Source: Candidatus Wildermuthbacteria bacterium
Lineage (GTDB): Bacteria; Patescibacteriota; Minisyncoccia; Minisyncoccales; UBA10102
DNA length: 64,000 bases
Direction of reading: 5' to 3'
Assembly: GCA_016186115.1 (NCBI GenBank)
Contig: JACPMK010000003.1
Location: 26,470-90,469, forward strand
The notes under the pieces are model-generated. The model searched no databases. It saw only the letters and a list, made by a program, of their open reading frames with translations, and was not told where the DNA came from. This document shows positions 5,238-63,877 of the stretch, one piece after another (the first letter of the stretch is position 1; every line of letters starts with the position of its first letter). The position numbers were made by a program, and so were the translations under genes.

Positions 5238-5678
5238 ATGGCGGAAGACGAACTTACGATTGAGAATCCCAATATGTCTCAACAAAAAACAGAAGGGGGC
5301 CAAGAGAAAGCCCGAGTGTCTCCCTTTGAGGTGGATTTTCTTTTGGTGTTTCTATTTGCGACCATTGTAGATGTAGTCGATATTATACTTGAAATTCTTT
5401 CTTTTCTTATCGTGCCGAAGCTCTTTGGAATTTTCCTTGATGCGGTTACTTTTGTCGGAATCACGTACTGGGTCTATCAAAAGACGAACAGGATTGAGAC
5501 GGCAAAAGAACGGGGTTTTCGAGGGTTATCCCCGCAAACAAAACGGCGATATCAGCGAAAAGCGCTTACAAAAGCGTTACGAAAGGTCGGGCTAACCTGC
5601 GCGGGAGAACTTATCCCATTTGTAGGACTAGTGCCCTTCTGGACCCTGCGCGTGCTTTCGACATTACGAGAAAAATGA
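5238..5678 (+). CDS. Small integral membrane protein (T4SS-like cluster)
   Basis: Track ORF with about three hydrophobic helices and a basic loop. No family recognised. Confidence 0.5.
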   Translation: MAEDELTIENPNMSQQKTEGGQEKARVSPFEVDFLLVFLFATIVDVVDIILEILSFLIVPKLFGIFLDAVTFVGITYWVYQKTNRIETAKERGFRGLSPQTKRRYQRKALTKALRKVGLTCAGELIPFVGLVPFWTLRVLSTLREK

Positions 5679-38049: not shown

Positions 38050-38077
38050 TTGACAAATATTTTGCAATTCATACAAT
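38050..38077 (+). promoter_or_regulatory. Sigma70-type promoter of the greA leader
   Basis: TTGACA (38050-55), 16-nt spacer, TACAAT (38072-77). Confidence 0.6.
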
Positions 38078-38083
38078 GATATA

Positions 38084-38330
38084 TGATGTGGATTCGCCGT
38101 TAGGAAAATTAGGGCATTCACGGAGTGTTTGTTAGGATTTTGAAGCAGGTCAACATCATGGTACAACATTTGCAGCAAAATTGTTTTCGACAGTTCTCTC
38201 TCAAAAAGCTCAATAACCAGAAAGCCATTATTGAGATTTCGATTATTGCGCACAGCCGGATTTGTTGACAATACATATCATTAGTACTGCATCGTCAATA
38301 AATCTGGCTCTCGCAAGCCAGATTTTTTTC
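38084..38330 (+). promoter_or_regulatory. About 245-nt greA leader: candidate leader-peptide attenuator (Ile-rich micro-ORF 38158..38268, antiterminator/terminator alternative)
   Basis: Micro-ORF MVQHLQQNCFRQFSLKKLNNQKAIIEISIIAHSRIC. A 16-bp helix 38254-69 / 38294-309 competes with terminator AATCTGGCT-CTCGCA-AGCCAGATT + T7 (38301-38330). No room for a promoter before greA. Confidence 0.5.
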
Positions 38331-38352: not shown

Positions 38353-38838
38353 ATGACAACTCAAACAACAACTCAACCCCCAAAATTTTATCTCACCAAA
38401 GAAGGACTCAAAAAAGTCCAAAAAGAATACGACAAGCTCCTTGAATTCCGCTCGCTGAAAATGAAGGGCGAAGTGCCCAGTATTTTGCATTCCGAAGATG
38501 TAAATCCTGATTACCTTACATTCCAAGAAGATATGAACTTGCTCGAATCCCGCATCGCCGAGTGCGAAAATATTCTCAAAAATGTTGAGTTGATTCAAAC
38601 TCCGAAAGAAGAAAAAAATATGGTCTGGTTAGGAGCAACAGTTACTCTTGAGGAAGTTCCAGACGGAACAATTAATGAGTACACTCTTCTGGGAACTCTT
38701 GAGGCGAATCCCGCAGAGGGTAAAATTTCTTCGGAATCCCCTGTGGGGCGGTCTCTTCTTGGGAAAAGAATAGGAGAAGAGGTGGTGATCAGTTCTCCTA
38801 TCCGAGTTGTCTACAAAGTTAAGAAAATTATTTATTAG
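38353..38838 (+). CDS. greA: Transcription elongation factor GreA
   Basis: N-terminal coiled coil (LTKEGLKKVQKEYDKL) and C-terminal FKBP-like domain (ISSESPVGRSLLGKRIGEEV). Confidence 0.85.
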   Translation: MTTQTTTQPPKFYLTKEGLKKVQKEYDKLLEFRSLKMKGEVPSILHSEDVNPDYLTFQEDMNLLESRIAECENILKNVELIQTPKEEKNMVWLGATVTLEEVPDGTINEYTLLGTLEANPAEGKISSESPVGRSLLGKRIGEEVVISSPIRVVYKVKKIIY

Positions 38839-47942: not shown

Positions 47943-48401
47943 ATGAAAATAAAAAGTACATCAATATTATGCGATAGGATAAAATTGATGTACAACGCTT
48001 TTTATCGGTTGCGCAAAGAGGGCTGCATTTATATCGAACGGCGCAACAATCAAATTTTTATTTCTCTCACCGAAAAAGGAAGAAGGAAAGCCGGACGGTT
48101 TTAGATTGATAGCTTGAAAATTAAAAAGCCAAAGCAATGGGATAGAAAATGGCGCTTGATTATGTTTGATATTGCACAGCTCCATCTTTTCAAGAGAAAC
48201 GCGCTCCGAGGAATTCTAAAACGACTGCAATTTTATCAACTTCAGAAAAGTATTTGGATTCATCCTTTTGATTGCCAGGATGAGTTCGATCTTCTGAAGG
48301 ATTTTTTCGGTTTGACCGTTAGGGAGATGAGATTTGTGGTTGCCAATGATATTGGGGACGATCAATCTTTGCGTACAATGTTTAAGTTGCAAACTGTTTG
48401 A
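47943..48401 (+). pseudogene. PaaX-like small regulator (wHTH + PaaX_C/Cas2-like fold) interrupted by an in-frame TAG
   Basis: ATG at 47943 or 47988 gives ...MYNAFYRLRKEGCIYIERRNNQIFISLTEKGRRKAGRF, then TAG (48102-04), then IDSLKIKKPKQWDRKWRLIMFDIAQ... in the same frame. The track only calls 48114..48401. Confidence 0.5.
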
Positions 48402-48433
48402 AAAGTCGGCTCAAAAATGTTAAATTGAGTGGC

Positions 48434-51400
48434 ATGGAAGTTAATTTTCCGAAGCTGGAGGAAAGAATATTAAAGCATTGGAAGGCGATTAGGGCATTTG
48501 AAAAATCGGTACAAATGCGAAGGGGATCGCCTCGTTTTGTTTTTTACGAAGGTCCTCCCACAGCCAATGGCGCCCCGGGCATCCATCACGTGCTTTCCCG
48601 TGCCTTTAAAGATATTATTCTGCGCTACAAAACCATGGCTGGATTTTACGTTGAGCGAAAAGCTGGCTGGGATACGCATGGTCTCCCCGTGGAATTGCAA
48701 ATTGAAAAAAAACTTGGATTGAAGTCAAAAAAGGATATCGAGAAATACGGCATCGCGAAATTCAATGCAGAGTGCAAAAAATCTGTCTGGGAATACAAGA
48801 AAGAATGGGAAAGTTTAACAGAGCGCATCGGATTTTGGCTCGACATGGAGCATCCCTACATCACTTATGAAACTCCATATATCGAAACTCTGTGGTCAAT
48901 TATTAAACAGTACTGGCAAAAGGGATTGCTCTATAAAGATTACAAGGTTGTGCCTTATTGTCCGCGCTGCGGCACTTCGCTTTCTTCTCATGAGCTAGCC
49001 CAAGGGTATAAAACCGTAAAAGAACCCTCGGTATATGTAAAATTCAAAATTCGAGCGGAAGATTTTCTTAAACTACCGACTACTAACCATAAACTACAAA
49101 CTGTTTATCTTTTGGCGTGGACTACAACTCCATGGACCCTGCCTTCGAATGTGGCATTGGCCGTCCATCCGGATATCTCTTATGTGGTTGCCAAACTCAA
49201 TAATGAGCATTACATCGTTGCACAAGAACGGGCAAAGCATGTGCTCGGCGAGACCTATGAAATTGCAGAAACGCTAAGGGGGAGCGATTTGGTGGGGGTT
49301 TCTTATGTCCCCCTATATCAATTTGAGCAGAGTGAAAAAGGGAAAAAAGTGTGGGAAGTAGTTCCTGCGGATTTTGTATCAACCAAAGAAGGCACCGGCA
49401 TCGTGCATACCGCAGTGGCCTATGGAGTTGATGATTTTGAGCTGGGCAAAAAACAGAATCTTGCAATGTTTCATTTCGTAACAGAAGAAGGAAAATTTCA
49501 TGACAAGGTAAAACCATTTGCCGGACTTTTTGTAAAAGATGCCGATCCCTTGATTATGGAAGATTTGAAAAAGCGCAGTACTCTTTTCAAAGAAGAGCTC
49601 TATGAGCATGAGTATCCTTTTTGCTGGAGATGCGACACGCCCCTGTTGTATTACGCGAAAGAGAGTTGGTTTTTGAATATGCAAAGGGTAAAAGATCAGT
49701 TGCTGGCGAACAATGAAAAAATTCATTGGATTCCTGCGTATATTAAGGAAGGGAGATTTGGCGAATGGCTTAAAGAGGTACGCGACTGGGCGTTTTCGAG
49801 AGAAAGATATTGGGGTACGCCCTTGCCTATCTGGCAATGCAAAGGATGCGTCCATCAAGAAACAATCGGCTCTCTCGATGATTTGAGGAAACAAAAATTC
49901 TCAACAAATACCTATTATATATTGCGTCATGGTGACTCCGAACGCCAGAAAACAAACGTCATGTCTTCTTGGCCAGAGAAAAAGCCATTACCCCTTACCT
50001 CAAGAGGAGTACGTGAAATTCAGGCGAGAGCAAAACAATTAAAAAAGAAAAAAATTGATTTCATTTTTTCTTCAGATATACTTCGAACGCAGCAAACCGC
50101 AGAAATCATAGGCAAAGAATTGGGCATTGCGCCAATTTTTGATAAGCGTTTGCGAGAGTGGGATATGGGCATATTGAATGGCAAGCATATCAAAGAATAC
50201 GGAAAAATGTTCGGCAGAAAAGGCGAGACCGCTTTGGAGCATTACCTGCGTAGATTTGAGGAGCCCGTACCAAAAGGAGAAAGCTGGAAAGATGTGCAGA
50301 AGCGATTGTATGGTTTGCTGCAAGAGCTTGAGAAAAAGTATGACGGGAAAACAGTTCTTGTTATCGGCCACGAGTTGCCGCTTACGCTTTTGGAGGGTCT
50401 TGCGAAGGGATTGTCGAGAGAAGAAGTTATCAAATTCCGGGAGAAAAAAGCATTGCATACCGCAGAATTGCGCAAGTTGTCAGTAACCCTGCTTCCTTAT
50501 AACGATGATATGGAAGTGGATCTTCATCGCCCCCACATCGATGCCGTTACTTTTTTTTGTTCTCAATGCGGCAAGCAAATGGAACGAGTAAAAGATGTGG
50601 TGGATGTATGGTTTGATTCTGGGGCAATGCCCTTTGCGCAAAATCCGAAATTCGAAATCCGAAATCCGAAATTAGCGCCTCCGGCGCTGTATCCGGCGGA
50701 TTATATTGTGGAGGGAATTGATCAAACACGGGGATGGTTTTATACCTTGCTTGCAATCGCCACGTTATTGGGTTTTGGCACGCCTTTTCGAAACGCAATT
50801 TCCTTGGGTCATATTCTGGATGAAAAGGGGGAAAAGATGTCCAAGACCAAAGGCAACGTGGTAAGCCCTTGGGATATGATTTCAAAGTATGGAGCAGATG
50901 CAGTGCGATGGTATTTCTATACCATGAATCATCCCGGAGACCCAAAATTATTTTCTGAAAGGGATATTCAGCAGACGCTTCGAAAATTCCTTTTTACGCT
51001 TTGGAATTCTTTTGTTTTTTATCAAATGTATAAACCTTCTTCCAATGCGAAGATTCCTGTCAAAATTCAAACCAGCCATATTCTTGATCGCTGGATTCTT
51101 TCGCGACTGCAATTGCTTATTGAGGAGATGACGAAACGCATCGATTCCTATGACGTCACAGGGGCGGCAAGAGCGCTGGAAGGTTTTGCGATCGATGATT
51201 TTTCACTTTGGTATATCCGAAGATCGCGTGTAAGATTTCAGAATCCAAGTTCTCCAAGAGAAAAACAAGAGGCGCTTACAACATTGCAGTATACTCTGGC
51301 GGAAGTAGCGAAGCTGGCAGCTCCTTTCGTGCCCATGATTAGCGAACATATCTATCAGGAACTTCAGCAGAAACGCAGCTCTTCTATGCAAAGTGTTCAC

Positions 51401-51949
51401 TGGAAAGATTGGCCGAAGTCCCAGCGGCAGTTTCGTAATCTGCCCCTTGAAGAAGAAATGAACAAGGCGCGAGAGGTCGTTGCCAAGGCGCTTGCCGAAC
51501 GCGCAAAAGCAGGGATCAAGGTGCGCCAGCCCCTCGCTTTGCTGAAAATCCGAAATCCGAAATCCGAAGTTCCAAACGAATTACTCAACGTAATTAAGGA
51601 TGAGGTGAATGTGAAAGAAGTTGTGTTTGATAAAAATCTCAAGGCAGAGGTTGAGTTGGATACGCGCCTCACTCCAGCGCTGAAAGAAGAAGGGATGCTG
51701 CGGGATATTCTGCGTTCCATACAGGATATGCGAAAAACAGCGGGGTACAAGCCACGGCATTCCATTGTGCTTAGTTTTGCCGGAGATGTTTTTCTTGGGC
51801 AGCTCTTGTTAAAGAACAGGATGGTGTTGAAGCGGGGCGTGGGAATAAAAAAGTTTATCCAGGGAGAAAAACCAAAGCATGTATTTGATATCGAACGCGA
51901 ATTTGAAATGGAAGGCAAGAGAATTTGGCTCGGCATAAAAAAAGCATAG
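48434..51949 (+). CDS. ileS: Isoleucyl-tRNA synthetase (type 2-like) with an inserted histidine-phosphatase domain
   Basis: PPTANGAPGIHHV (HIGH region), GWDTHGLP, WTTTPWTLPSN, CP1 editing region, KMSKTKGN, DQTRGWFY. ATG at 48434 (MEVNFPKLEE). Confidence 0.95.
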   Translation: MEVNFPKLEERILKHWKAIRAFEKSVQMRRGSPRFVFYEGPPTANGAPGIHHVLSRAFKDIILRYKTMAGFYVERKAGWDTHGLPVELQIEKKLGLKSKKDIEKYGIAKFNAECKKSVWEYKKEWESLTERIGFWLDMEHPYITYETPYIETLWSIIKQYWQKGLLYKDYKVVPYCPRCGTSLSSHELAQGYKTVKEPSVYVKFKIRAEDFLKLPTTNHKLQTVYLLAWTTTPWTLPSNVALAVHPDISYVVAKLNNEHYIVAQERAKHVLGETYEIAETLRGSDLVGVSYVPLYQFEQSEKGKKVWEVVPADFVSTKEGTGIVHTAVAYGVDDFELGKKQNLAMFHFVTEEGKFHDKVKPFAGLFVKDADPLIMEDLKKRSTLFKEELYEHEYPFCWRCDTPLLYYAKESWFLNMQRVKDQLLANNEKIHWIPAYIKEGRFGEWLKEVRDWAFSRERYWGTPLPIWQCKGCVHQETIGSLDDLRKQKFSTNTYYILRHGDSERQKTNVMSSWPEKKPLPLTSRGVREIQARAKQLKKKKIDFIFSSDILRTQQTAEIIGKELGIAPIFDKRLREWDMGILNGKHIKEYGKMFGRKGETALEHYLRRFEEPVPKGESWKDVQKRLYGLLQELEKKYDGKTVLVIGHELPLTLLEGLAKGLSREEVIKFREKKALHTAELRKLSVTLLPYNDDMEVDLHRPHIDAVTFFCSQCGKQMERVKDVVDVWFDSGAMPFAQNPKFEIRNPKLAPPALYPADYIVEGIDQTRGWFYTLLAIATLLGFGTPFRNAISLGHILDEKGEKMSKTKGNVVSPWDMISKYGADAVRWYFYTMNHPGDPKLFSERDIQQTLRKFLFTLWNSFVFYQMYKPSSNAKIPVKIQTSHILDRWILSRLQLLIEEMTKRIDSYDVTGAARALEGFAIDDFSLWYIRRSRVRFQNPSSPREKQEALTTLQYTLAEVAKLAAPFVPMISEHIYQELQQKRSSSMQSVHWKDWPKSQRQFRNLPLEEEMNKAREVVAKALAERAKAGIKVRQPLALLKIRNPKSEVPNELLNVIKDEVNVKEVVFDKNLKAEVELDTRLTPALKEEGMLRDILRSIQDMRKTAGYKPRHSIVLSFAGDVFLGQLLLKNRMVLKRGVGIKKFIQGEKPKHVFDIEREFEMEGKRIWLGIKKA
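49069..49103 (+). repeat. Heptanucleotide-periodic tract in ileS (TAAACTA type)
   Basis: TAAACTA CCGACTA CTAACCA TAAACTA CAAACTG, translated LKLPTTNHKLQT just before WTTTPWTLP. Shares the 14-mer ATAAACTACAAACT with 61785-61798. Confidence 0.75.
49900..50510 (+). other. Histidine phosphatase (phosphoglycerate-mutase-like, branch 1) domain embedded in IleRS
   Basis: YYILRHGDSERQ (RHG motif), SSDILRTQQTAEII, DKRLREWDMGILNG, PKGESWKDVQKRL, VLVIGHELPL. Inserted between ...ETIGSLDDLRKQKF and DLHRPHID.... Confidence 0.8.
50641..50675 (+). repeat. Heptanucleotide tandem repeat in ileS (AAATYCG x5)
   Basis: AAATCCG AAATTCG AAATCCG AAATCCG AAATTAG, translated NPKFEIRNPKLA. Confidence 0.85.
51546..51573 (+). 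repeat. Heptanucleotide tandem repeat in ileS (AAATCCG x3 + 1 degenerate)
   Basis: AAATCCG AAATCCG AAATCCG AAGTTCC, translated KIRNPKSEVP. Confidence 0.85.
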
Positions 51950-58117: not shown

Positions 58118-58788
58118 TGGGCACTCTTTTTATTGTCGCCACACCAATCGGCAATCTCGAAGATATTACTCATCGGGCGCTTCGCGTATTGCGCCAAGCA
58201 GATTTTATCTTATGCGAAGATACAAGGGTTACCAAGAAATTGCTCGATCATTACGGAATTGCAACTCCAACGTTGAGCTATCATCAACACAGCACTCCAG
58301 AGAAGATGAGCTATGTTTTTGGTCTTTTATCTACTGGAAAGAATATCGCATTGGTTTCTGATTCCGGAACTCCCGGAATTGCAGACCCCGGCAATGAACT
58401 CATCGAATTTTTGCTCCAGAAAAATCCCGGAATAAACATAGCTCCTATTCCTGGCCCTTCTGCGGTCGCCGCAATCGCAAGCATTTCTGGGTTTCCAACG
58501 AATTCCTTTTTATTCTTGGGATATCCGCCGAGTAAAAAAGGCAGAAAGAAATTTTTTGAGAAAGTTGCAGAGTCGCAATGCCCAGTGATTTTCTACGAGT
58601 CGCCCTACCGGATTATAAAAACTCTGCAGCAGTTGCAGGAGTTAAGCCCAGAGGTATATGCGGTAGTGGGCAGGGAACTTACCAAACAATTCGAAACAAT
58701 CTCCCGCGGCCCTATTGACCAAGTGCTCCAAATAATGCAGAAAGATAAGGTAAAAGGAGAATTTGTGGTAATTGTATACAACCAATGA
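58117..58788 (+). CDS. rsmI: 16S rRNA (cytidine1402-2'-O)-methyltransferase
   Basis: LFIVATPIGNLEDIT, CEDTR, DSGTPGIADPG, and a tetrapyrrole-methylase fold pattern. Confidence 0.9.
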   Translation: MGTLFIVATPIGNLEDITHRALRVLRQADFILCEDTRVTKKLLDHYGIATPTLSYHQHSTPEKMSYVFGLLSTGKNIALVSDSGTPGIADPGNELIEFLLQKNPGINIAPIPGPSAVAAIASISGFPTNSFLFLGYPPSKKGRKKFFEKVAESQCPVIFYESPYRIIKTLQQLQELSPEVYAVVGRELTKQFETISRGPIDQVLQIMQKDKVKGEFVVIVYNQ

Positions 58789-60278
58789 ACAAAAAATTCT
58801 ATATCACAACTGCAATTCCCTATGTGAATGCCCGCCCGCACATCGGGCATGCTTTGGAATTTATTCAGGCCGATGTCATTGCGCGCTACCATCGTCTGAA
58901 GGGTGAGGAGGTTTTGCTTTTGTCTGGAAGCGATGAGAATGCGCTTAAAAATGTTCAAGCCGCCCAGAGCGCCGGAGTCCCTGTGCAGCAATTTATTGAT
59001 GAAAACGCCGTGCTTTTTGTCGAGTTGGCCAATGCGCTTGGCGTGCAATTCGACGTATTTCAAAAGGGAAGCAGCAAAGAACACCATCTCTCCAGTCAGA
59101 AACTGTGGCAACTTTGCGCCGAAAATGGGGATATCTACAAAAAATCCTACGAAGGTTTGTACTGCACGGGATGCGAAGCATTTTATACTCCAGATGAGCT
59201 TGATGCGAATCAGGAATGCCTTGAGCATCCCGGCCGAAAACTCGAGAGCGTCTCCGAAGAAAATTATTTTTTCAAACTTTCACGATATCAGGACAAAATC
59301 ATTAGTGTATTGGAAAGCGATGAATTGGAAATTGTTCCCGCGACCCGAAAAAATGAAATGCTCGCTTTTTTGAAACAGACACTGCAAGATATTAGCATTT
59401 CGCGCACCAATGAACGCGCCAAAAATTGGGGCGTGCCAGTTCCGGCCGATGATTCTCAAAGAATGTATGTTTGGTTCGATGCCCTCAATATGTATCAGTC
59501 GGGAGTTGGATTTGGATTAGATGAACAAAAGCATAACAAGTGGTGGCCGGCAGATATTCATGTGATTGGCAAGGGGATTATTCGTTTTCACGCGGTGTAC
59601 TGGCCGGCATTTCTTTTGTCGGCTGGGTTGCCTTTGCCCAAGAAAATCTTTGTTCATGGCTATATCACTTCAAGCGGACAAAAAATGTCAAAGACACTGG
59701 GAAATGTGGTTGATCCTTTTCCGCTTGTCGAAAAATATGGAAGTGGTGCAGTACGTTACTTTTTCTTGCGCGAAATTCCGCCGACAGAAGACGGCGATTT
59801 TTCCTATGAAAAATTCGAAGAGAGGTATAATTCTGACCTTGCGAGTGGTTTGGGAAATCTTGTCGCGAGAGTACTCGCGCTTGTAGGAAAAATAAATCCG
59901 AAATCCTTTGACAAGCTCAGAATCCCGAGCGAAGTCGAGGGACAAATTCAAAGTCCAAAACTGCGGGAAATTATAAATGCAGCGAGAGAAAAGGTGGATA
60001 CGGCGTTGGAAAAGTTTCAGTTTCAGGATGCGTTGATTGCCATTTGGGATGTGATTCATTTTTGCGACAGATATATTGAGGAGAAAAAACCGTGGTCTTT
60101 CGACTTCGCTCAAGATAAACCCGATCAAAAAGAAGTAATCGACGATTTATTGCTAGCAATTTTAGCAATCGGCACGCTTCTCAAGCCATTTCTCCCCGCG
60201 ACTTCAGAGAAAATAGCGAATCAATTGCAACATGGAAAAGGCGATCCTCTCTTCCCGCGTCTTGACAGAAATGTATGA
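58785..60278 (+). CDS. metG: Methionyl-tRNA synthetase (short form)
   Basis: PYVNARPHIGH (HIGH), KMSKTLGN, zinc knuckle CTGCEAF, C-terminal anticodon-binding helices. Confidence 0.95.
   Translation: MNKKFYITTAIPYVNARPHIGHALEFIQADVIARYHRLKGEEVLLLSGSDENALKNVQAAQSAGVPVQQFIDENAVLFVELANALGVQFDVFQKGSSKEHHLSSQKLWQLCAENGDIYKKSYEGLYCTGCEAFYTPDELDANQECLEHPGRKLESVSEENYFFKLSRYQDKIISVLESDELEIVPATRKNEMLAFLKQTLQDISISRTNERAKNWGVPVPADDSQRMYVWFDALNMYQSGVGFGLDEQKHNKWWPADIHVIGKGIIRFHAVYWPAFLLSAGLPLPKKIFVHGYITSSGQKMSKTLGNVVDPFPLVEKYGSGAVRYFFLREIPPTEDGDFSYEKFEERYNSDLASGLGNLVARVLALVGKINPKSFDKLRIPSEVEGQIQSPKLREIINAAREKVDTALEKFQFQDALIAIWDVIHFCDRYIEEKKPWSFDFAQDKPDQKEVIDDLLLAILAIGTLLKPFLPATSEKIANQLQHGKGDPLFPRLDRNV
59894..59941 (+). 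repeat. In-frame composite insertion in metG: two AAATCCN heptamers plus an imperfect palindrome
   Basis: AAATCCG AAATCCT, then CCTTTGAC (59905-12) / GTCGAGGG (59934-41) pairing with two G-U, and an inner GCTC/GAGC. Translated NPKSFDKLRIPSEVEG. Confidence 0.55.
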
Positions 60279-60289
60279 AAAAGTATACT
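60262..60289 (+). promoter_or_regulatory. Sigma70-type promoter overlapping the metG 3' end (cassette A)
   Basis: TTGACA (60262-67), 16-nt spacer, TATACT (60284-89). Confidence 0.6.
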
Positions 60290-60298
60290 ACACTAATC

Positions 60299-60379
60299 AT
60301 GAGCAGCCAGATCAGAAAAGGATTTTATTTCTTCTTTTTTACCAGCCCCGGCGAAGAGCGAGGTCGTTATTCTTGTTAA
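60299..60379 (+). CDS. Candidate near-leaderless leader peptide with a Phe/Tyr run (26 aa)
   Basis: MSSQIRKGFYFFFFTSPGEERGRYSC. The ATG is about 3-4 nt from the predicted TSS. The F/Y codons 60323-60340 are followed directly by ACCAGCCCC, which can pair with the terminator 3' arm. Confidence 0.35.
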   Translation: MSSQIRKGFYFFFFTSPGEERGRYSC

Positions 60380-60405
60380 TCGAAAACATCTAACCAAGAA
60401 ATCAC

Positions 60406-60441
60406 CCAGCCCTTCGTCAAACGAGGGGCTGGTTTTCTTTT
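60406..60441 (+). terminator. Rho-independent terminator / attenuator in the leader of the 117-aa ORF
   Basis: CCAGCCCTTCG-TCAAA-CGAGGGGCTGG (11 bp, one G-U) followed by TTTTCTTTT. Confidence 0.7.
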
Positions 60442-60542
60442 CGCCCTGCGGCGAAAAGACGATGTTTTCTGATGAGAGCTCCAACACATTCGGGTTTCTC
60501 ACCAGAGAAGATCTTAACTATCTCTGGTTAAGGAGGGAAACA

Positions 60543-60896
60543 ATGGCCGAACATCGTATGGGTATAATACAGGGTAGCACTGGAACGCTCAAAGAGGTTC
60601 TTGGAATGCTTGGGGTGTCGATAACAAAATTCGCATTCCAAGGGCATAATTCGTCGGACTCGTGTGGACAGCAAGGGGTGCATCCTCCTCACGTACTGGA
60701 GGAGTATAGACATTATTGCATTGGGAAAGCTGGCTGTGTGGGAGAGGATGTGCTTATCGTAATTGCCGAAGAACGGCAACTGTACCCAGCACGTGCAAAA
60801 GGGATTTACTTCCTCCTTCCAAGAAATGCATTCCCCTCTTTCCGGGATCCGCTTATGCAAGTTGGCGTAGGGCAAGGTCCTGGATATACCGGCTAA
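60543..60896 (+). CDS. Orphan protein, 117 aa, SD-led (P3)
   Basis: AAGGAGG (60530-36), 6-nt spacer, ATG at 60543. Cys/His-rich middle (SCGQQGVHPPH...YRHYCIGKAGCVGED). No family recognised. Confidence 0.55.
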   Translation: MAEHRMGIIQGSTGTLKEVLGMLGVSITKFAFQGHNSSDSCGQQGVHPPHVLEEYRHYCIGKAGCVGEDVLIVIAEERQLYPARAKGIYFLLPRNAFPSFRDPLMQVGVGQGPGYTG

Positions 60897-60917
60897 ATCT
60901 GGAAAGTACGGCCTATA

Positions 60918-60953
60918 GGGCGGAGCTTTACCGAGCTCCGCCCGTTTTCTTTT
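60918..60953 (+). terminator. Rho-independent terminator
   Basis: GGGCGGAGCT-TTACCG-AGCTCCGCCC (10 bp) followed by GTTTTCTTTT. Confidence 0.8.
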
Positions 60954-60998
60954 GACAAGCAGTTGACAACCCTGTTTTCAATTTGCTATGGTTATAAT
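60952..60998 (+). promoter_or_regulatory. Promoter of cassette B
   Basis: Consensus TATAAT at 60993-98. Two TTGACA copies (60952-57, 60963-68) are spaced too far away for a canonical -35, so the -35 is ambiguous. Confidence 0.45.
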
Positions 60999-61008
60999 AC
61001 TTGAGCTT

Positions 61009-61095
61009 ATGAAGAAAATCTCCCAAACAATGTTGCTTTTGTTGGTCTTGGTAACTAATCCTACTCGGTTGGGAGATTTTGATCGCAGAAGTTAA
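61009..61095 (+). CDS. Candidate near-leaderless leader peptide with a Leu/Val run (28 aa)
   Basis: MKKISQTMLLLLVLVTNPTRLGDFDRRS. The TTG CTT TTG TTG GTC TTG GTA codons are in phase. The ORF spans attenuator segments 1 and 2. Confidence 0.5.
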   Translation: MKKISQTMLLLLVLVTNPTRLGDFDRRS

Positions 61096-61121
61096 AAATA
61101 CAAAATTCCTTGCGACAACGT

Positions 61122-61153
61122 AACCTCCCAACCGCGGGAGGTTTCTTCTTTTG
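61122..61153 (+). terminator. Rho-independent terminator (segments 3:4 of the cassette B attenuator)
   Basis: AACCTCCC-AACCGC-GGGAGGTT followed by TCTTCTTTTGTCTT. Confidence 0.75.
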
Positions 61154-61327
61154 TCTTGAGGAGTAAGGAAAAGTTTATTCCTTATTCCCCAGGCCAGAAG
61201 AGTATGTCTGGTTTGGAGCAGCAAGTTCACCTACCATAAGCGTGAGCGTGCTGTAGGAAGATAATCCTGCGATCGGGTAACATCTGTGAGCAGGATAATC
61301 CTCTGAATTGCTAAGGAGGAGAACGAG

Positions 61328-61387
61328 GTGGTTGAGAAGACCCCCCACTTTCTTGGCTGCTTCGTTCTCTTCCCGCGCAATGTTTAG
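61328..61387 (+). CDS. Possible 19-aa micro-ORF, SD-led
   Basis: AAGGAGG (61313-19), 8-nt spacer, GTG at 61328. Encodes MVEKTPHFLGCFVLFPRNV. Confidence 0.25.
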   Translation: MVEKTPHFLGCFVLFPRNV

Positions 61388-61410
61388 CACATTGTATGAA
61401 GGAGGGTGAG

Positions 61411-61584
61411 ATGTACTTTGGTTCGCACATTTGCTGTCTGGATGCCTTTTTCATAGGGGAGGACGGCAGTGGGGCGGTGAAAAAACTTAAAGAGGCGCCA
61501 CCGCCGCCACCAGAAAACGAAAAGGAGAAACTTCTTCCTGCTGACGAAGACCTGCAAGGTCAGCAGGACGAGAAATCATCCTAG
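61411..61584 (+). CDS. Orphan protein, 57 aa, SD-led (P4)
   Basis: AAGGAGGG (61399-406), then ATG at 61411. Encodes MYFGSHICCLDAFFIGEDGSG...APPPPPENEKEK... with an acidic tail. Confidence 0.45.
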   Translation: MYFGSHICCLDAFFIGEDGSGAVKKLKEAPPPPPENEKEKLLPADEDLQGQQDEKSS

Positions 61585-61594
61585 CTCTCCCATG

Positions 61595-61647
61595 CGGCTC
61601 CTTTTGTTTGCGCATCAACGCGCAGCAGGAGGAGCCGTCCATTTTTT
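61595..61647 (+). terminator. Compound hairpin terminator
   Basis: CGGCTCCT (61595-602) / AGGAGCCG (61630-37) with inner TGCGC/GCGCA, followed by TCCATTTTTT. Confidence 0.6.
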
Positions 61648-61649
61648 AC

Positions 61650-61678
61650 TTGACATTATCCCTTGAGCTTACTAGTAT
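61650..61678 (+). promoter_or_regulatory. Sigma70-type promoter of cassette E
   Basis: TTGACA (61650-55), 17-nt spacer, TAGTAT (61673-78). Confidence 0.55.
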
Positions 61679-61695
61679 AAAATATACTCTTCAGC

Positions 61696-61788
61696 ATGGA
61701 CATTATTTTACAGATCAGACAAGCGATTATTGGCATTATTACCATTATTAGCCCCACCAAACGAGGGAGTTTCTTGCAGCAGCTATAA
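61696..61788 (+). CDS. Candidate leader peptide with an Ile run (30 aa)
   Basis: MDIILQIRQAIIGIITIISPTKRGSFLQQL. Four ATTATT pairs plus one ATC are all in frame with the ATG. Confidence 0.45.
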   Translation: MDIILQIRQAIIGIITIISPTKRGSFLQQL

Positions 61789-61813
61789 ACTACAAACTAC
61801 TAACTAAAATCTG
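61786..61813 (+). repeat. Heptanucleotide-periodic tract (TAAACTA type) between micro-ORF and terminator
   Basis: TAAACTA CAAACTA CTAACTA AAATCTG. Confidence 0.7.
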
Positions 61814-61814
61814 C

Positions 61815-61845
61815 ATCAGCTCCCTCGCGGGGGCTGATTTTTTTG
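61815..61845 (+). terminator. Rho-independent terminator (cassette E)
   Basis: ATCAGCTCCC-TCGC-GGGGGCTGAT (10 bp, one G-U); the run of seven T (61838-61844) begins at the last stem T. Confidence 0.8.
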
Positions 61846-61928
61846 AGCATAGTGCATGGGCTTGATTCTCCAATCTCATTCACTGCGCTCAATACCAGAG
61901 AGTGCAGTAATAGCACGAGGAGGGTGTA

Positions 61929-62111
61929 ATGAAAAGGGAAGAGAAGTCCGATATTATTGAAGAAATCGTGACGGTTCTCGCGGGAGGAGATTTTGCCGGA
62001 GGCGAGAAACAGCGCCGCAAAAATCGAAAAGATAAGCTGGAGAAGAAGAGGTGGGGGAAAGCTGCTGCTGACGCAGGAGCTCTGCCTGCCAAAGACAGTC
62101 TTGATTTGTAA
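61929..62111 (+). CDS. Orphan protein, 60 aa, SD-led (P5), highly charged
   Basis: GAGGAGGG (61916-23), then ATG at 61929. Encodes MKREEKSDIIEEIVTVLAGGDFAGGEKQRRKNRKDKLEKKRWGK.... Confidence 0.5.
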   Translation: MKREEKSDIIEEIVTVLAGGDFAGGEKQRRKNRKDKLEKKRWGKAAADAGALPAKDSLDL

Positions 62112-62136
62112 TTTATGTTTCTCTTCCTTAGGTTTC

Positions 62137-62177
62137 GGGGGCTCGCTGAATGGTTCGCGAAGTGAGCCCCCTTTTTT
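62137..62177 (+). terminator. Rho-independent terminator
   Basis: GGGGGCTCGC / GTGAGCCCCC (10 bp, one G-U), 15-nt loop, followed by TTTTTT. Confidence 0.8.
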
Positions 62178-62192
62178 GTGGAAATATTCCTC

Positions 62193-62221
62193 TTGACGAT
62201 ATTTTGCAAAGAGATTATTCT
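62193..62221 (+). promoter_or_regulatory. Sigma70-type promoter of cassette G
   Basis: TTGACG (62193-98), 17-nt spacer, TATTCT (62216-21). Confidence 0.5.
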
Positions 62222-62281
62222 AGGTATTGTTTTAAGAATCACTGCACCTTAAACAGAGCATTAGTTGAAGGGAGAAGGAGA

Positions 62282-62590
62282 ATGGCAAAGACAGCTGTCC
62301 TCCTTAGGAAGGGGGATTGGCAGAATGGCAGGACGGGAGATTACAGTAAAATCGTAGAGCTGTTGAAGATTCTTCACAGGGAGTTCAAGGTTCAGCGGCT
62401 CTTACTTGATCAGGAAGTTCTTGATGCGTTGCCTTCAAAACTTCGTGATGTTAAGCTTGTGTTTCTTGTTCCCTCCGGAGGCCAGAAGCCACAAACTCCG
62501 GAAGGGATCAAGATAACAATAGCTGAACTTCCAGAGAATTTCTCGAAGATGGAATTCATCGCAGCCGTCTTTCCCGATTTCCCACAATAG
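62282..62590 (+). CDS. Orphan protein, 102 aa, SD-led (P6)
   Basis: GGAGAAGGAG, then ATG at 62282. Encodes MAKTAVLLRKGDWQNGRTGDYSKIVELLKIL.... No family recognised. The longer track start at 62150 was rejected. Confidence 0.55.
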   Translation: MAKTAVLLRKGDWQNGRTGDYSKIVELLKILHREFKVQRLLLDQEVLDALPSKLRDVKLVFLVPSGGQKPQTPEGIKITIAELPENFSKMEFIAAVFPDFPQ

Positions 62591-62618
62591 CCCGTCCACT
62601 AGGCCGGGCTATTTTTTT
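62588..62618 (+). terminator. Rho-independent terminator
   Basis: TAGCCCGTCC-ACTA-GGCCGGGCTA (one mismatch) followed by T7. The stop codon lies in the stem. Confidence 0.75.
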
Positions 62619-62659
62619 GTCTTCTTTATTATTCTTGCTTTTTGAGTACAATAAAACAT

Positions 62660-63544
62660 ATGCCTTTTCTCATCGATACCCATGGACATGTTAATTTCAA
62701 TGCGTTTCGCAACGATGCGGACGATGTTCTTGGCCGCGCATTGAAAAATGATACGTGGGTGATCATGCCCGGCTCTCAATATTCCACATCGCAGCGGGCG
62801 GTTGAAATCGCAGAGCGTTTTAAAAATGGAGTTTTCGCCGCAGTCGGCATTCACCCCATCCATTTGGAGCATCGGGAAGTAGATGTGATGGAGGTACAGT
62901 CAGCGAAGGGAGAGAAAGAGAGCTGGATGACCTTTGAAACTAGAGCCGAAGAATTTGATCATGAGGCCTATAAAGATTTAGCAAAAAGCAAAAAAGTGGT
63001 GGCCATCGGCGAGGTTGGTCTTGACTATTATTACGAACCCAAAGGCAAGGCGAAAAGAGAGGAATTCCGGGCGCGACAAAAGGAAACTCTCGAGAAACAA
63101 ATTTCACTGGCCCTTGAATTGAATCTTCCCGTCATTTTGCATTGCCGCGCCGCCCATCCCGATCTTTTTAATCTACTCACTACCCGCTATCCACTGCCAA
63201 CCAGCGATTTTCGTGGCGTGCTGCATTGTTACACAGGAAATCTTGAGCAGGCGAAAAAATTTTTGGATCTGGGTTTATACTTCGGATTCAATGGTTTGAT
63301 TTTCAAAAAAGTTCCTGCGCTCCCTGATCCGCGCGAAATTATTTCTTTTCTTCCATTGGATCGCATTCTTCTCGAGACCGATTCGCCGTATTTGGTTCCA
63401 TCGCAGGCGGCTGTAGAACGAAATGAACCTTTGTTTGTAAAGTACGTTGCCCAGGAAATTTCCCGCATCAAAAATATCCCCCTTGAAAAGGTAGCAGAAA
63501 TTACCACCCAAAACGCCTTGACTCTTTTCCATTTATCTTTTTAG
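62660..63544 (+). CDS. tatD: TatD family metal-dependent hydrolase/DNase
   Basis: MPFLIDTHGHV start, GIHP, EVGLDYYY, HCR and ETDSPYL motifs. It has an unusually long insert between the GIHP and EVGLDYYY motifs. Confidence 0.9.
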   Translation: MPFLIDTHGHVNFNAFRNDADDVLGRALKNDTWVIMPGSQYSTSQRAVEIAERFKNGVFAAVGIHPIHLEHREVDVMEVQSAKGEKESWMTFETRAEEFDHEAYKDLAKSKKVVAIGEVGLDYYYEPKGKAKREEFRARQKETLEKQISLALELNLPVILHCRAAHPDLFNLLTTRYPLPTSDFRGVLHCYTGNLEQAKKFLDLGLYFGFNGLIFKKVPALPDPREIISFLPLDRILLETDSPYLVPSQAAVERNEPLFVKYVAQEISRIKNIPLEKVAEITTQNALTLFHLSF

Positions 63545-63550
63545 CCATCC

Positions 63551-63579
63551 TTGACAAAGAACTATGGAAATTTTAAGGT
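63551..63579 (+). promoter_or_regulatory. Possible promoter
   Basis: TTGACA (63551-56), 17-nt spacer, TAAGGT (weak -10). Confidence 0.4.
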
Positions 63580-63606
63580 GGAGCTAAGCTAGGAGGGAGG
63601 AAAACA

Positions 63607-63786
63607 ATGAGCACATCCGAGATAGGAAAGCATATCTGTAGAGAGTGGGCGGAGAGAATCCCAGGGGCTCCGGGTTTCTGTATCTGTCGGAAATGTGGGG
63701 GGCGGGTGTTGACAGAAGAACCAAATAGACCCCCCGAAGGTACAAACAGGAAAGGAACCACCGCACAATTTCTGGAGGTGGCGTAG
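63607..63786 (+). CDS. Small Cys-rich orphan protein (59 aa, below track threshold), SD-led (P7)
   Basis: AGGAGGGAGG, then ATG at 63607. Encodes MSTSEIGKHICREWAERIPGAPGFCICRKCGGRVLTEEPNRPPEGTNRKGTTAQFLEVA, a possible zinc ribbon. Confidence 0.45.
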   Translation: MSTSEIGKHICREWAERIPGAPGFCICRKCGGRVLTEEPNRPPEGTNRKGTTAQFLEVA

Positions 63787-63804
63787 TTGAAGACCCATAT
63801 TCGA

Positions 63805-63856
63805 GGGGGCGAGACAACGGAGAAGATTAATTCTTCTTTCTCTGTTTCGCCCCTAA
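63805..63856 (+). terminator. Long compound hairpin between convergent genes
   Basis: GGGGCGAGACA (63806-16) / TGTTTCGCCCC (63843-53) with one G-U, inner GAAGA-TTAAT-TCTTC, followed by TAATTTGTT. Confidence 0.55.
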
Positions 63857-63877
63857 TTTGTTCTCCGCCATGAGCGT

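Follow-up and report, generated by a model that had tools for sequence, protein, structure and literature searches.

Amino-acid-sensing leaders in bacteria

In the pheL leader of E. coli and the Proteobacterial leu, ilvGMEDA/ilvBN, thr, his and trp leaders, a short open reading frame (ORF) carries tandem codons for the sensed amino acid, and the position of the ribosome chooses between mutually exclusive antiterminator and terminator hairpins. In this study, we examine a group of comparable elements, here called the island, in the interval between metG and tatD of a Candidatus Wildermuthbacteria bacterium, a member of the Patescibacteria or candidate phyla radiation (CPR), within a stretch of 64,000 nucleotides of contig JACPMK010000003.1 that we refer to as the window. 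Three leaders of the island share this design, with short ORFs bearing runs of codons for one amino acid and a predicted ribosome-dependent choice of hairpins. Moreover, in the manner of pheL and pheA, the homologous Phe leader of related genomes governs genes for DAHP synthase or prephenate dehydratase (PDT). The identification of the mechanism as leader-peptide transcription attenuation, a known kind of control, is quite likely correct, and the overall explanation, in which the island consists of four units including three ribosome-mediated attenuators responsive to Phe, Leu(/Val) and Ile, is likely.

The island departs from the pheL-type systems in several respects. Its leader ORFs lack a Shine-Dalgarno sequence (SD) and have a short or absent 5' untranslated region (UTR). 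The antiterminator's 5' strand is contained in the leader ORF, some 20-30 nt short of the stop codon, and takes up both terminator arms. Behind the terminator comes a conserved structured UTR, and the cargo consists of tiny orphan proteins in place of biosynthetic operons, in a CPR host. The closest precedent found comes from mycobacteria, where Canestrari et al. (10.1101/834739) describe leaderless polycysteine short ORFs that are sensory, several independent units sharing one amino-acid dependence (a 'ribulon'), and in which a stalled ribosome opens a structure hiding a downstream ribosome-binding site, a form of translational control. The likeness lies in the leaderless arrangement, inferred for the window, and in codon runs for a single amino acid, whereas the target in the window is an intrinsic terminator, and the amino acids, phylum and cargo differ; unit 2 of the island may add an SD-sequestering layer of the mycobacterial kind. 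T-box riboswitches likewise translate amino-acid supply or tRNA charging into terminator read-through before genes for aminoacyl-tRNA synthetases or amino-acid metabolism, but they work without a leader peptide, recognising uncharged tRNA by direct binding. At Rfam gathering thresholds, the window gives no match to leader families and no T-box.

Full-text searches found no paper on ribosome-mediated attenuation in CPR bacteria. What is unusual in the present case is the phylum, the apparent leaderless form of the leaders, the modularity of the cassettes, which carry conserved UTR elements, and, above all, the wiring of three putative amino-acid sensors to species-specific tiny proteins where biosynthetic genes would be expected.

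Architecture of the metG–tatD interval

A gap of 2,381 bp separates the end of metG (60278) from the start of tatD (62660), and every signal within it lies on the plus strand (Table 1). An earlier interpretation made from the letters of this DNA (the sequence-only reading), which gave the gap as about 2.3 kb, had described seven independent transcription units with at least five promoter-like elements. The seven strong terminators, three micro-ORFs (26, 28 and 30 aa) and four SD-led ORFs (57-117 aa) that it listed are all found at its coordinates, together with one tandem hairpin; one of the terminators, T4, was missed by the terminator scan and identified by reading the sequence. Its promoter count stands for the four strong ones and no further, since the promoter scan of the island returns four strong sigma-70-like plus-strand promoters, at 60262, 60963, 61650 and 62193. 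The same scan finds no promoter-like site from any leader terminator to the start of the ORF behind it (60443-60542, 61153-61410 and 61847-61928). With only four promoters, and none in these segments, the island comprises four transcription units rather than seven, each micro-ORF and its terminator forming leader and putative attenuator of the ORF behind them. Units 1-3 are probably Phe-, Leu(/Val)- and Ile-sensing leader-peptide attenuators that gate tiny proteins, and are built alike: each begins with a strong promoter and a short leader ORF that lacks an SD and has hardly any 5' UTR, continues with an intrinsic terminator and a structured 5' UTR, and ends with a small SD-led ORF and a second terminator. 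Unit 4 consists of promoter P4 and ORF-102, without an attenuator.

The density of promoter and terminator signals in the island is above chance, as the sequence-only reading had noticed. When hairpins are called strictly, the window has 13 plus-strand terminators, and 5 of them fall inside the island, which makes up 3.7% of the window's length, as do 3 of the window's 11 promoters scoring at least 10/12. The G+C-richer look attributed to the island is not borne out (0.459 vs 0.455 for the window; codon usage is native), while the reported lack of an integrase, a transposase or meaningful flanking repeats at the island holds. For comparison, we fetched 2.2 Mb of CPR DNA, and the loci within it are labelled L001 and so on; 80 such loci plus the window were scanned. 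Three further assemblies of the source organism (L081-L083) are identical across the entire island. The organism derives from groundwater samples and occurs in sequencing runs SRR4343428, SRR12113422 and SRR12113384. Outside the source organism, the closest relatives of MetG share at most 76% identity, and the best genome matches all belong to the Patescibacteria/CPR.

Table 1. Positions of the metG–tatD island's features and flanking genes in the window
Feature	Position	Strand	Details
metG	58785-60278	+	Pfam tRNA-synt_1g 6.6e-98; stop codon 60276-78
Promoter P1	60262..60289	+	TTGACA-16-TATACT; 11/12 match; overlaps metG 3' end
Phe leader ORF, unit 1	60299..60379	+	MSSQIRKGFYFFFFTSPGEERGRYSC; 26 aa; no SD; Phe/Tyr codon run 60323-60340
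Antiterminator 5' strand, unit 1	60341..60356	+	ACCAGCCCCGGCGAAG, codes T-S-P-G-E; pairs with both T1 arms (folds)
Terminator T1, unit 1 putative attenuator	60406..60442	+	hairpin 60406-32; 12-bp stem plus TTTTCTTTTC
Tandem hairpin beside T1	60436-60459	+	terminator scan, folds
Phe cassette UTR element	60470..60527	+	TGATGAGA, hairpin, TCTCACCAGAGAA, loop, TCTCTGG; contains CTCACCAGAGAA
ORF-117, unit 1 payload (Phe)	60543..60896	+	SD AAGGAGGG at 60530-37; NCBI MBI2644414
Terminator T2, closes unit 1	60918..60953	+	hairpin 60918-43; terminator scan
Promoter P2	60952..60998	+	tandem TTGACA boxes (60952, 60963); -10 is TATGGT or TATAAT
Leu/Val leader ORF, unit 2	61009..61095	+	MKKISQTMLLLLVLVTNPTRLGDFDRRS; 28 aa; codon run 61033-61053
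Segment 1, unit 2	61015-26	+	inside leader ORF
Segment 2, unit 2	61066-80	+	inside leader ORF; codes R-L-G-D-F
Terminator T3, unit 2 putative attenuator	61122..61152	+	hairpin 61122-43; left arm doubles as segment 2 partner
5' UTR, unit 2	61153..61410	+	very highly structured; 25-bp helix 61315-39 / 61349-73 with 8 G-U pairs
ORF-57, unit 2 payload (Leu)	61411..61584	+	NCBI MBI2644415
Terminator T4	61596..61648	+	hairpin 61596-636; long, imperfect, T-run 6 nt past stem; sequence reading
Promoter P3	61650..61688	+	TTGACA-17-TAGTAT; alternative -10 TATACT at 61683-88
Ile leader ORF, unit 3	61696..61788	+	MDIILQIRQAIIGIITIISPTKRGSFLQQL; 30 aa; Ile run 61726-61749 (II-G-II-T-II)
Antiterminator 5' strand, unit 3	61747-61771	+	folds
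Terminator T5, unit 3 putative attenuator	61815..61846	+	hairpin 61815-38; terminator scan, folds
UTR hairpin, unit 3	61845..61890	+	(T)TGAGC-A-TAG...CTG-C-GCTC(AA); fold z = -3.1
ORF-60, unit 3 payload (Ile)	61929..62111	+	NCBI MBI2644416
Terminator T6	62137..62178	+	hairpin 62137-71; inner part by scan, rest by sequence reading
Promoter P4	62193..62221	+	TTGACG-17-TATTCT; followed by ~55-nt unstructured UTR (fold z = +1.6), no leader ORF
ORF-102, unit 4, no attenuator	62282..62590	+	NCBI MBI2644417, annotated there with a longer start
Terminator T7	62586..62620	+	hairpin 62586-613; hairpin scan, sequence reading
tatD	62660-63544	+	Pfam TatD_DNase 2.9e-71

Putative leader peptides and alternative RNA structures

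The leader peptides read MSSQIRKG-FYFFFF-TSPGEERGRYSC in unit 1, MKKISQTM-LLLLVLV-TNPTRLGDFDRRS in unit 2 and MDIILQIRQA-IIGIITII-SPTKRGSFLQQL in unit 3, and an NCBIfam search returns no match for them. An SD is absent from all leader ORFs and present at all cargo ORFs. Between the -10 box and the leader ATG lie 9 nt for unit 1, 10 or 16 nt for unit 2 and 7 or 17 nt for unit 3, the paired values corresponding to the choice between alternative -10 boxes; by sequence reading, 8 of 10 measured Phe leaders have 8-9 nt here, and those of L001 and L202 have 15 nt. From this promoter geometry we infer that the leader transcripts should start at the AUG or no more than a few nucleotides away from it, making them leaderless or nearly so. 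Upstream of the Phe leader start, a second ATG in the same frame, at 60275, shares bases with the metG stop codon (ATGA), and through it the leader could also be translated by coupling on transcripts reading through from metG. Unit 1 probably also ends the rsmI-metG transcript, and T1 would then act as a Phe-dependent operon end.

Just 3' of the codon run, each of the three leaders has RNA that can pair with either arm of the terminator behind it, and the minimum-energy fold of the full-length leader is an antiterminator that consumes both arms (3/3). For unit 2, the repeat finder also resolves a 1:2 pairing of 61015-26 with 61069-80 (12 of 12 positions complementary) and a 2:3 pairing of 61066-78 with 61122-34 (12 of 13). 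The effect of a ribosome was simulated by folding only the RNA outside an assumed footprint, a thermodynamic treatment that ignores kinetics. With the A site at the first or third codon of the run, 0 of 9-11 terminator pairs form in any of the three units, and with the ribosome at the leader stop codon, 7-11 of the 9-11 pairs form. When the upstream segment is replaced by dinucleotide-shuffled versions, the terminator is disrupted in only 0/500 (unit 1), 7/500 (unit 2) and 4/500 (unit 3) cases. Several hallmarks of an attenuator are found in the window: clustered codons, a terminator with no promoter between it and the gene behind it, and an antiterminator that excludes the terminator in folds, as shuffled sequence seldom does.

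These alternative structures suggest how the units could work. When the cognate charged tRNA is scarce, the ribosome would stall early in the codon run, freeing the downstream RNA, still within the leader ORF, to pair with both terminator arms as an antiterminator, and RNA polymerase would continue into the small ORF. Under ample supply, the ribosome would instead reach the leader stop codon and occupy the inside of the antiterminator, and with the antiterminator blocked, the local terminator hairpin would form and the transcript would end after about 145-160 nt. Units 1, 2 and 3 would thereby gate species-specific small proteins of 117, 57 and 60 aa, respectively.

Structured elements behind the terminators

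Beyond its terminator, the Phe cassette carries a UTR element whose CTCACCAGAGAA motif is found in the window and at eight related loci (L001, L084, L089, L130, L166, L179, L186 and L200). The 12-mer CTC[AG]CCAG[AG]GAA occurs ten times in the fetched CPR DNA, nine of them directly behind Phe leaders with the 'TSP' signature, whatever the cargo. The outer helix of the element (its P1 helix) is 92% paired and includes 2 compensatory pairs, which 14 of 500 shuffles match. A hammerhead or a mimic of the tRNA anticodon stem was considered for the CUGAUGAG...CCAGAGAA element and rejected, as the helices misfit and no Rfam match lies there.

The 5' UTR of unit 2 folds to -115.3 kcal/mol (shuffles, -75.8 +/- 4.8; z = -8.2), and its minus strand to only -81.4 kcal/mol. 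In the predicted fold, an anti-SD at 61298-304 pairs with the SD of ORF-57 at 61401-07, about 100 nt downstream, which hints at a second layer of control, translational or through processing. This UTR has no Rfam match and no homologue among the fetched loci. The UTR hairpin of unit 3 also lies behind attenuators in L087, L179 and L202, where its inner stem covaries.

Homologous leaders and their cargo in relatives

The Phe leader belongs to a family that we gathered by a metagenome pattern search with the Phe terminator and by targeted contig look-ups. The pattern search yielded 8 Phe leaders among the 120 stretches listed, the remainder being unrelated GC-rich hairpins, and the family now holds at least 12 leaders, including that of the window, with the consensus ..SRNFFFFF.FTSPAKSLE... 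Leader 1 shares 73-81% DNA identity with the leaders in L001, L202, L089 and L130. In L001, also from the Wildermuthbacteria, metG is followed by a promoter, the leader MNGASKYFFFTFTSPGEETGSCSC (73% DNA identity to leader 1), a terminator and DAHP synthase (Pfam 1.4e-73). DAHP synthase stands behind Phe 'TSP' leaders in L089, L130 and L202 as well, PDT in L084, L143 and L166, and small ORFs of no assigned family in L179, L186, L200 and the window; in L162, the contig stops before the cargo can be read.

The 12 Phe leaders all have the same antiterminator strand, ACCAGCCC.GCGAAG, between diverging flanks, and the antiterminator pairing is kept in 96% of cells, with one-sided changes remaining paired as G-U. 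We take this pattern as conservation and not as proof. In the RNAalifold consensus, a further helix joins the Phe codons to the purine-rich GCGAAGAG..GGAAG, corresponding to a 1:2 element. Among homologous leaders, the Phe codons alternate between TTT and TTC with the residue unchanged.

A second leader design codes for ..RLGDF.. and has the terminator AACCTCCCA.CC..GGGAGGTT. Since it carries Leu, Val/Leu or Phe runs in unit 2 of the window and in L087, L088, L089 and L002, regulatory codons appear to have been swapped on a shared scaffold. Leu-run leaders also precede a stand-alone LeuA_dimer domain in L001 (9559-9888; 2.3e-28) and on the reverse strand of L179 (4917-5303; 5.1e-20), and stand-alone Lrp/AsnC ligand-binding domains occupy island slots in L084 (9563-9778) and L186 (697-972) (6.4e-05 and 3.4e-09). 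On the reverse strand of L179, between the LeuA_dimer unit and the next leader, a tRNA-like 3' end (GGTTCAAATCCGG...CACCA) lies at about 5330-5415.

A crude scan of the 80 CPR loci and the window finds 16 candidates combining leader, terminator and antiterminator (at least 10 nt of pairing), compared with 3 in reversed-sequence controls. Met and Trp versions are also seen beyond this family, in other parts of the CPR. In L077 (70-190), a leaderless Met-run leader (MMNQKVIMMMQMRSV) with terminator and antiterminator precedes SAM hydroxide adenosyltransferase (Pfam 7.6e-37), an enzyme that releases methionine from SAM, and metG. A leaderless Met-rich leader (MTITISMMMAMTAD) with terminator and antiterminator hairpins lies 5' of metG in L004 (7400-7510). 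In L078 (8251-8345), a leader with three Trp codons (MKIINNNNWWTTFLW) and a terminator stand directly 5' of a TrpB-like PLP enzyme (399 aa; PALP 2.5e-37), and a near-identical Trp leader occurs in L080 (13294-13389), a Roizmanbacteria metagenome-assembled genome, where it also has a terminator but no ORF is listed behind it, the shared form being MKI(I/K)NNNNWWTT(F/L)LW.

The interval in other CPR genomes

Among 58 CPR loci having both genes, metG and tatD lie within 150 bp of each other in 28. In this respect, the sequence-only reading rightly saw an insert relative to the generic adjacency of the two genes, but an insert that is foreign or specific to this genome is contradicted by the relatives. 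In all fetched Wildermuthbacteria-like relatives, the interval spans 0.7-5.9 kb and is filled with like units of varying cargo. For example, L002 has a single Phe unit with a 131-aa ORF; L084 has a stand-alone Lrp/AsnC ligand-binding domain, a 323-aa ORF, an M28-like peptidase, PDT and a 131-aa ORF; and L087 has PDT-ACT and a Leu/Ile unit. In L088, an M24 peptidase is accompanied by nine small orphans behind Trp, Phe, Val/Leu and Ile leaders. L089 holds an M20 peptidase, DAHP synthase and small ORFs, L090 a HAD hydrolase, PDT and DAHP synthase, and L212 an M20 peptidase, small ORFs and LeuA_dimer. The presence of like units in every such relative indicates that the island is a lineage-typical, cargo-variable regulatory array and not a recent foreign insertion.

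CPR bacteria are generally described as dependent on others for amino acids. We tentatively raise the possibility that the metG–tatD interval of Wildermuthbacteria-like CPR serves as a 'starvation console', a set of interchangeable leaderless attenuator cassettes (Phe, Leu/Val, Ile and Trp) with their own UTR elements and fast cargo turnover, in which the biosynthetic cargo has here been replaced by species-specific, possibly new, small proteins induced by shortage of one amino acid. If so, these small proteins would be candidate signalling or host-exploitation factors.

The payload ORFs

The four payload ORFs, annotated at NCBI as 'hypothetical proteins' (HYW95_02835-02850), resemble native coding sequence with host codon usage. 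Each has a strong SD at 5-7 nt spacing (4/4), and in all four the own frame scores as coding and the other five as non-coding. The log-likelihood per codon is 0.098, 0.112, 0.321 and 0.178 for the 117-, 57-, 60- and 102-aa ORFs, respectively, relative to 0.22 +/- 0.08-0.11 for windows of real genes and a 95th percentile of about 0 for non-coding frames.

The sequence-only reading recognised no family among them, and the searches concur. Pfam, NCBIfam, PHROGs and PADLOC profiles match none of the four, and a PDB sequence search gives nothing significant for ORF-117 or ORF-102. ORF-117 and ORF-60 retrieve only themselves from 5.8 billion proteins, as does ORF-102 from 1.84 billion representatives in an exhaustive HMMER search. 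For ORF-57, the four profile libraries and the fetched loci hold no homologue, these and its 90%-identity cluster being the places checked, and that cluster consists of start-site variants from the source organism only. Nor do the payloads resemble the small proteins in the slots of relatives. ORF-117 was compared with the 131-aa ORF of L002 and with the N-terminal extension of the L001 DAHP synthase, and no similarity emerged.

Small proteins are in some cases conserved between the slots of relatives, as with the 104-aa protein of L088 and the 106-aa protein of L089 (43% identity, 3e-24) and the two 67-aa proteins of L179 and L202; the 96-aa protein of L179 and the 82-aa protein of L200 are alike by inspection only. 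Such conservation means that small proteins in these slots can be genuine. A helical family of 60-72 aa occupies slots in L179, L202, L087 and L089. Its profile detects neither ORF-57 nor ORF-60, and we do not claim a by-eye 'KKL..PP.K' resemblance. Gene callers overlooked members of this family behind Leu-type leaders in L089 (14881-15177, where an opposite-strand ORF is called) and L087 (10811-10993, where nothing is called). By analogy with the stand-alone LeuA and Lrp/AsnC domains in relatives' slots, our best guess is that the payloads may be starvation-induced regulators or ligand-binding proteins.

Weighing the explanations

Four things are shown by the sequences: how the units are built, the alternative pairings, that the cassettes are homologous, and that relatives link them with cognate biosynthetic genes. 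Several points weigh against the attenuator reading of units 1-3. Stalling, read-through, leaderless initiation and translation of the payloads are deduced from sequence, and translation of the leaders hinges on initiation at or near the transcript start, itself based solely on promoter geometry. The ribosome-free minimum-energy fold is the antiterminator, so that termination would require translation, and a plausible 1:2 'anti-antiterminator' exists in units 1 and 2 only. The key helices of the Phe family are invariant and show no covariation, which is partly accounted for by the terminator sequence itself having been the search pattern. The best sub-threshold Rfam match is Phe_leader (RF01859; 25 bits vs 55, E = 0.45), on 61017-61151 of the Leu unit, and reflects shared architecture only. 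Cargo acting in the metabolism of the sensed amino acid, a further hallmark of attenuators, is found in relatives and not in the window, where nothing known connects the gated genes with Phe, Leu or Ile. The payloads are strict orphans, single-sequence AlphaFold2 gives poor models (pLDDT 40 for ORF-117 and 52 for ORF-102), and the codon score of ORF-117 reaches no higher than the 5th percentile for real genes.

The last of these points are also what would be expected of a decaying relic, in which the cassettes derive from lost biosynthetic operons and the ORFs are filler or very young de novo ORFs that inherited their SD and terminator. Relatives hold real genes in the corresponding slots while the window ORFs lack homologues in the searches made, ORF-57 and ORF-60 are low-complexity and charged, and the UTR and SD of ORF-117 are homologous to those before unrelated cargo in L179, L084 and L001. 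We nonetheless regard a relic as improbable, given that all four ORFs score as coding in their own frame alone, that every one of them comes with a strong SD at optimal spacing and a terminator of its own, and that certain small payloads are conserved among relatives. In addition, tblastn with the relatives' cargo proteins (DAHP synthase, PDT, LeuA_dimer, peptidases and small ORFs) finds no remnant in any frame of the island, the only matches being the leader cassette and the metG end. The micro-ORFs might alternatively stand alone, as type I toxin-like or membrane peptides or as small RNAs of 145-160 nt unrelated to the downstream ORFs. Their peptides, hydrophobic and 26-30 aa long, have the size and character of type I toxins and other small hydrophobic peptides, each is flanked by a strong promoter and a strong terminator, and terminated leader transcripts can function as small RNAs in other bacteria. 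Against this, and unlike type I toxins, the runs consist of codons for one amino acid that matches the downstream gene of relatives (DAHP synthase or PDT for Phe, LeuA_dimer for Leu, SAM_HAT and metG for Met, the TrpB-like gene for Trp), and the conserved C-terminal halves (TSP.., RLGDF) coincide with the antiterminator strand. No minus-strand promoter/terminator pair lies opposite the micro-ORFs, and neither an antisense promoter, an antitoxin-like partner nor an NCBIfam match was found, all of which makes stand-alone function very unlikely. As for seven autonomous tiny units in a horizontally acquired island, the orphan ORFs, the dense signals and the adjacency of metG and tatD in many other CPR loci lend it some appeal, yet with just four promoters, native composition and codon usage, no mobility genes or flanking repeats seen and homologous cassettes at this locus in every Wildermuthbacteria-like relative fetched, it is scarcely credible.

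Implications

Ribosome-mediated attenuation by units 1-3, as we read them, would mean that the island provides concrete, testable evidence for this mode of control in the CPR, in a leaderless and modular form. The leaders would then act as built-in labels stating which amino-acid shortage each orphan small gene answers to, information that is rare for uncultivated bacteria. Moreover, the occurrence of one cassette before DAHP synthase, PDT, stand-alone binding domains, peptidases or orphans constitutes a natural experiment in cassette reuse and in the birth and turnover of small genes. In annotation, the three micro-ORFs would best be entered as leader peptides, and their terminators as attenuators, instead of as genes or ends of operons, and HYW95_02835-02850 would be grouped accordingly.

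Other features of the window

Upstream of greA (38353-38838; GreA Pfam 6.3e-20), the region 38050-38330 contains a promoter (TTGACA-16-TACAAT) and an Ile-rich short ORF at 38158-38268 (..KAIIEISIIAHSRIC), and its segment 38256-75 pairs with the left arm of a terminator at 38300-25. This region may hold another attenuator, or it may act as a leader of greA in the manner of GraL in E. coli. Behind tatD (63551-63860), a weak promoter-like site and a strong SD precede a Cys-rich 59-aa ORF (63607-63786), which is followed by a hairpin; its codon score of -0.108 is non-coding-like, and it appears in Logan gene calls, with no NCBI accession listed in the collection. Finally, an IleRS-like class I aminoacyl-tRNA synthetase of 1183 aa (48398-51949) has a His_Phos_1 domain inserted at residues 507-681, an architecture that recurs in L084.

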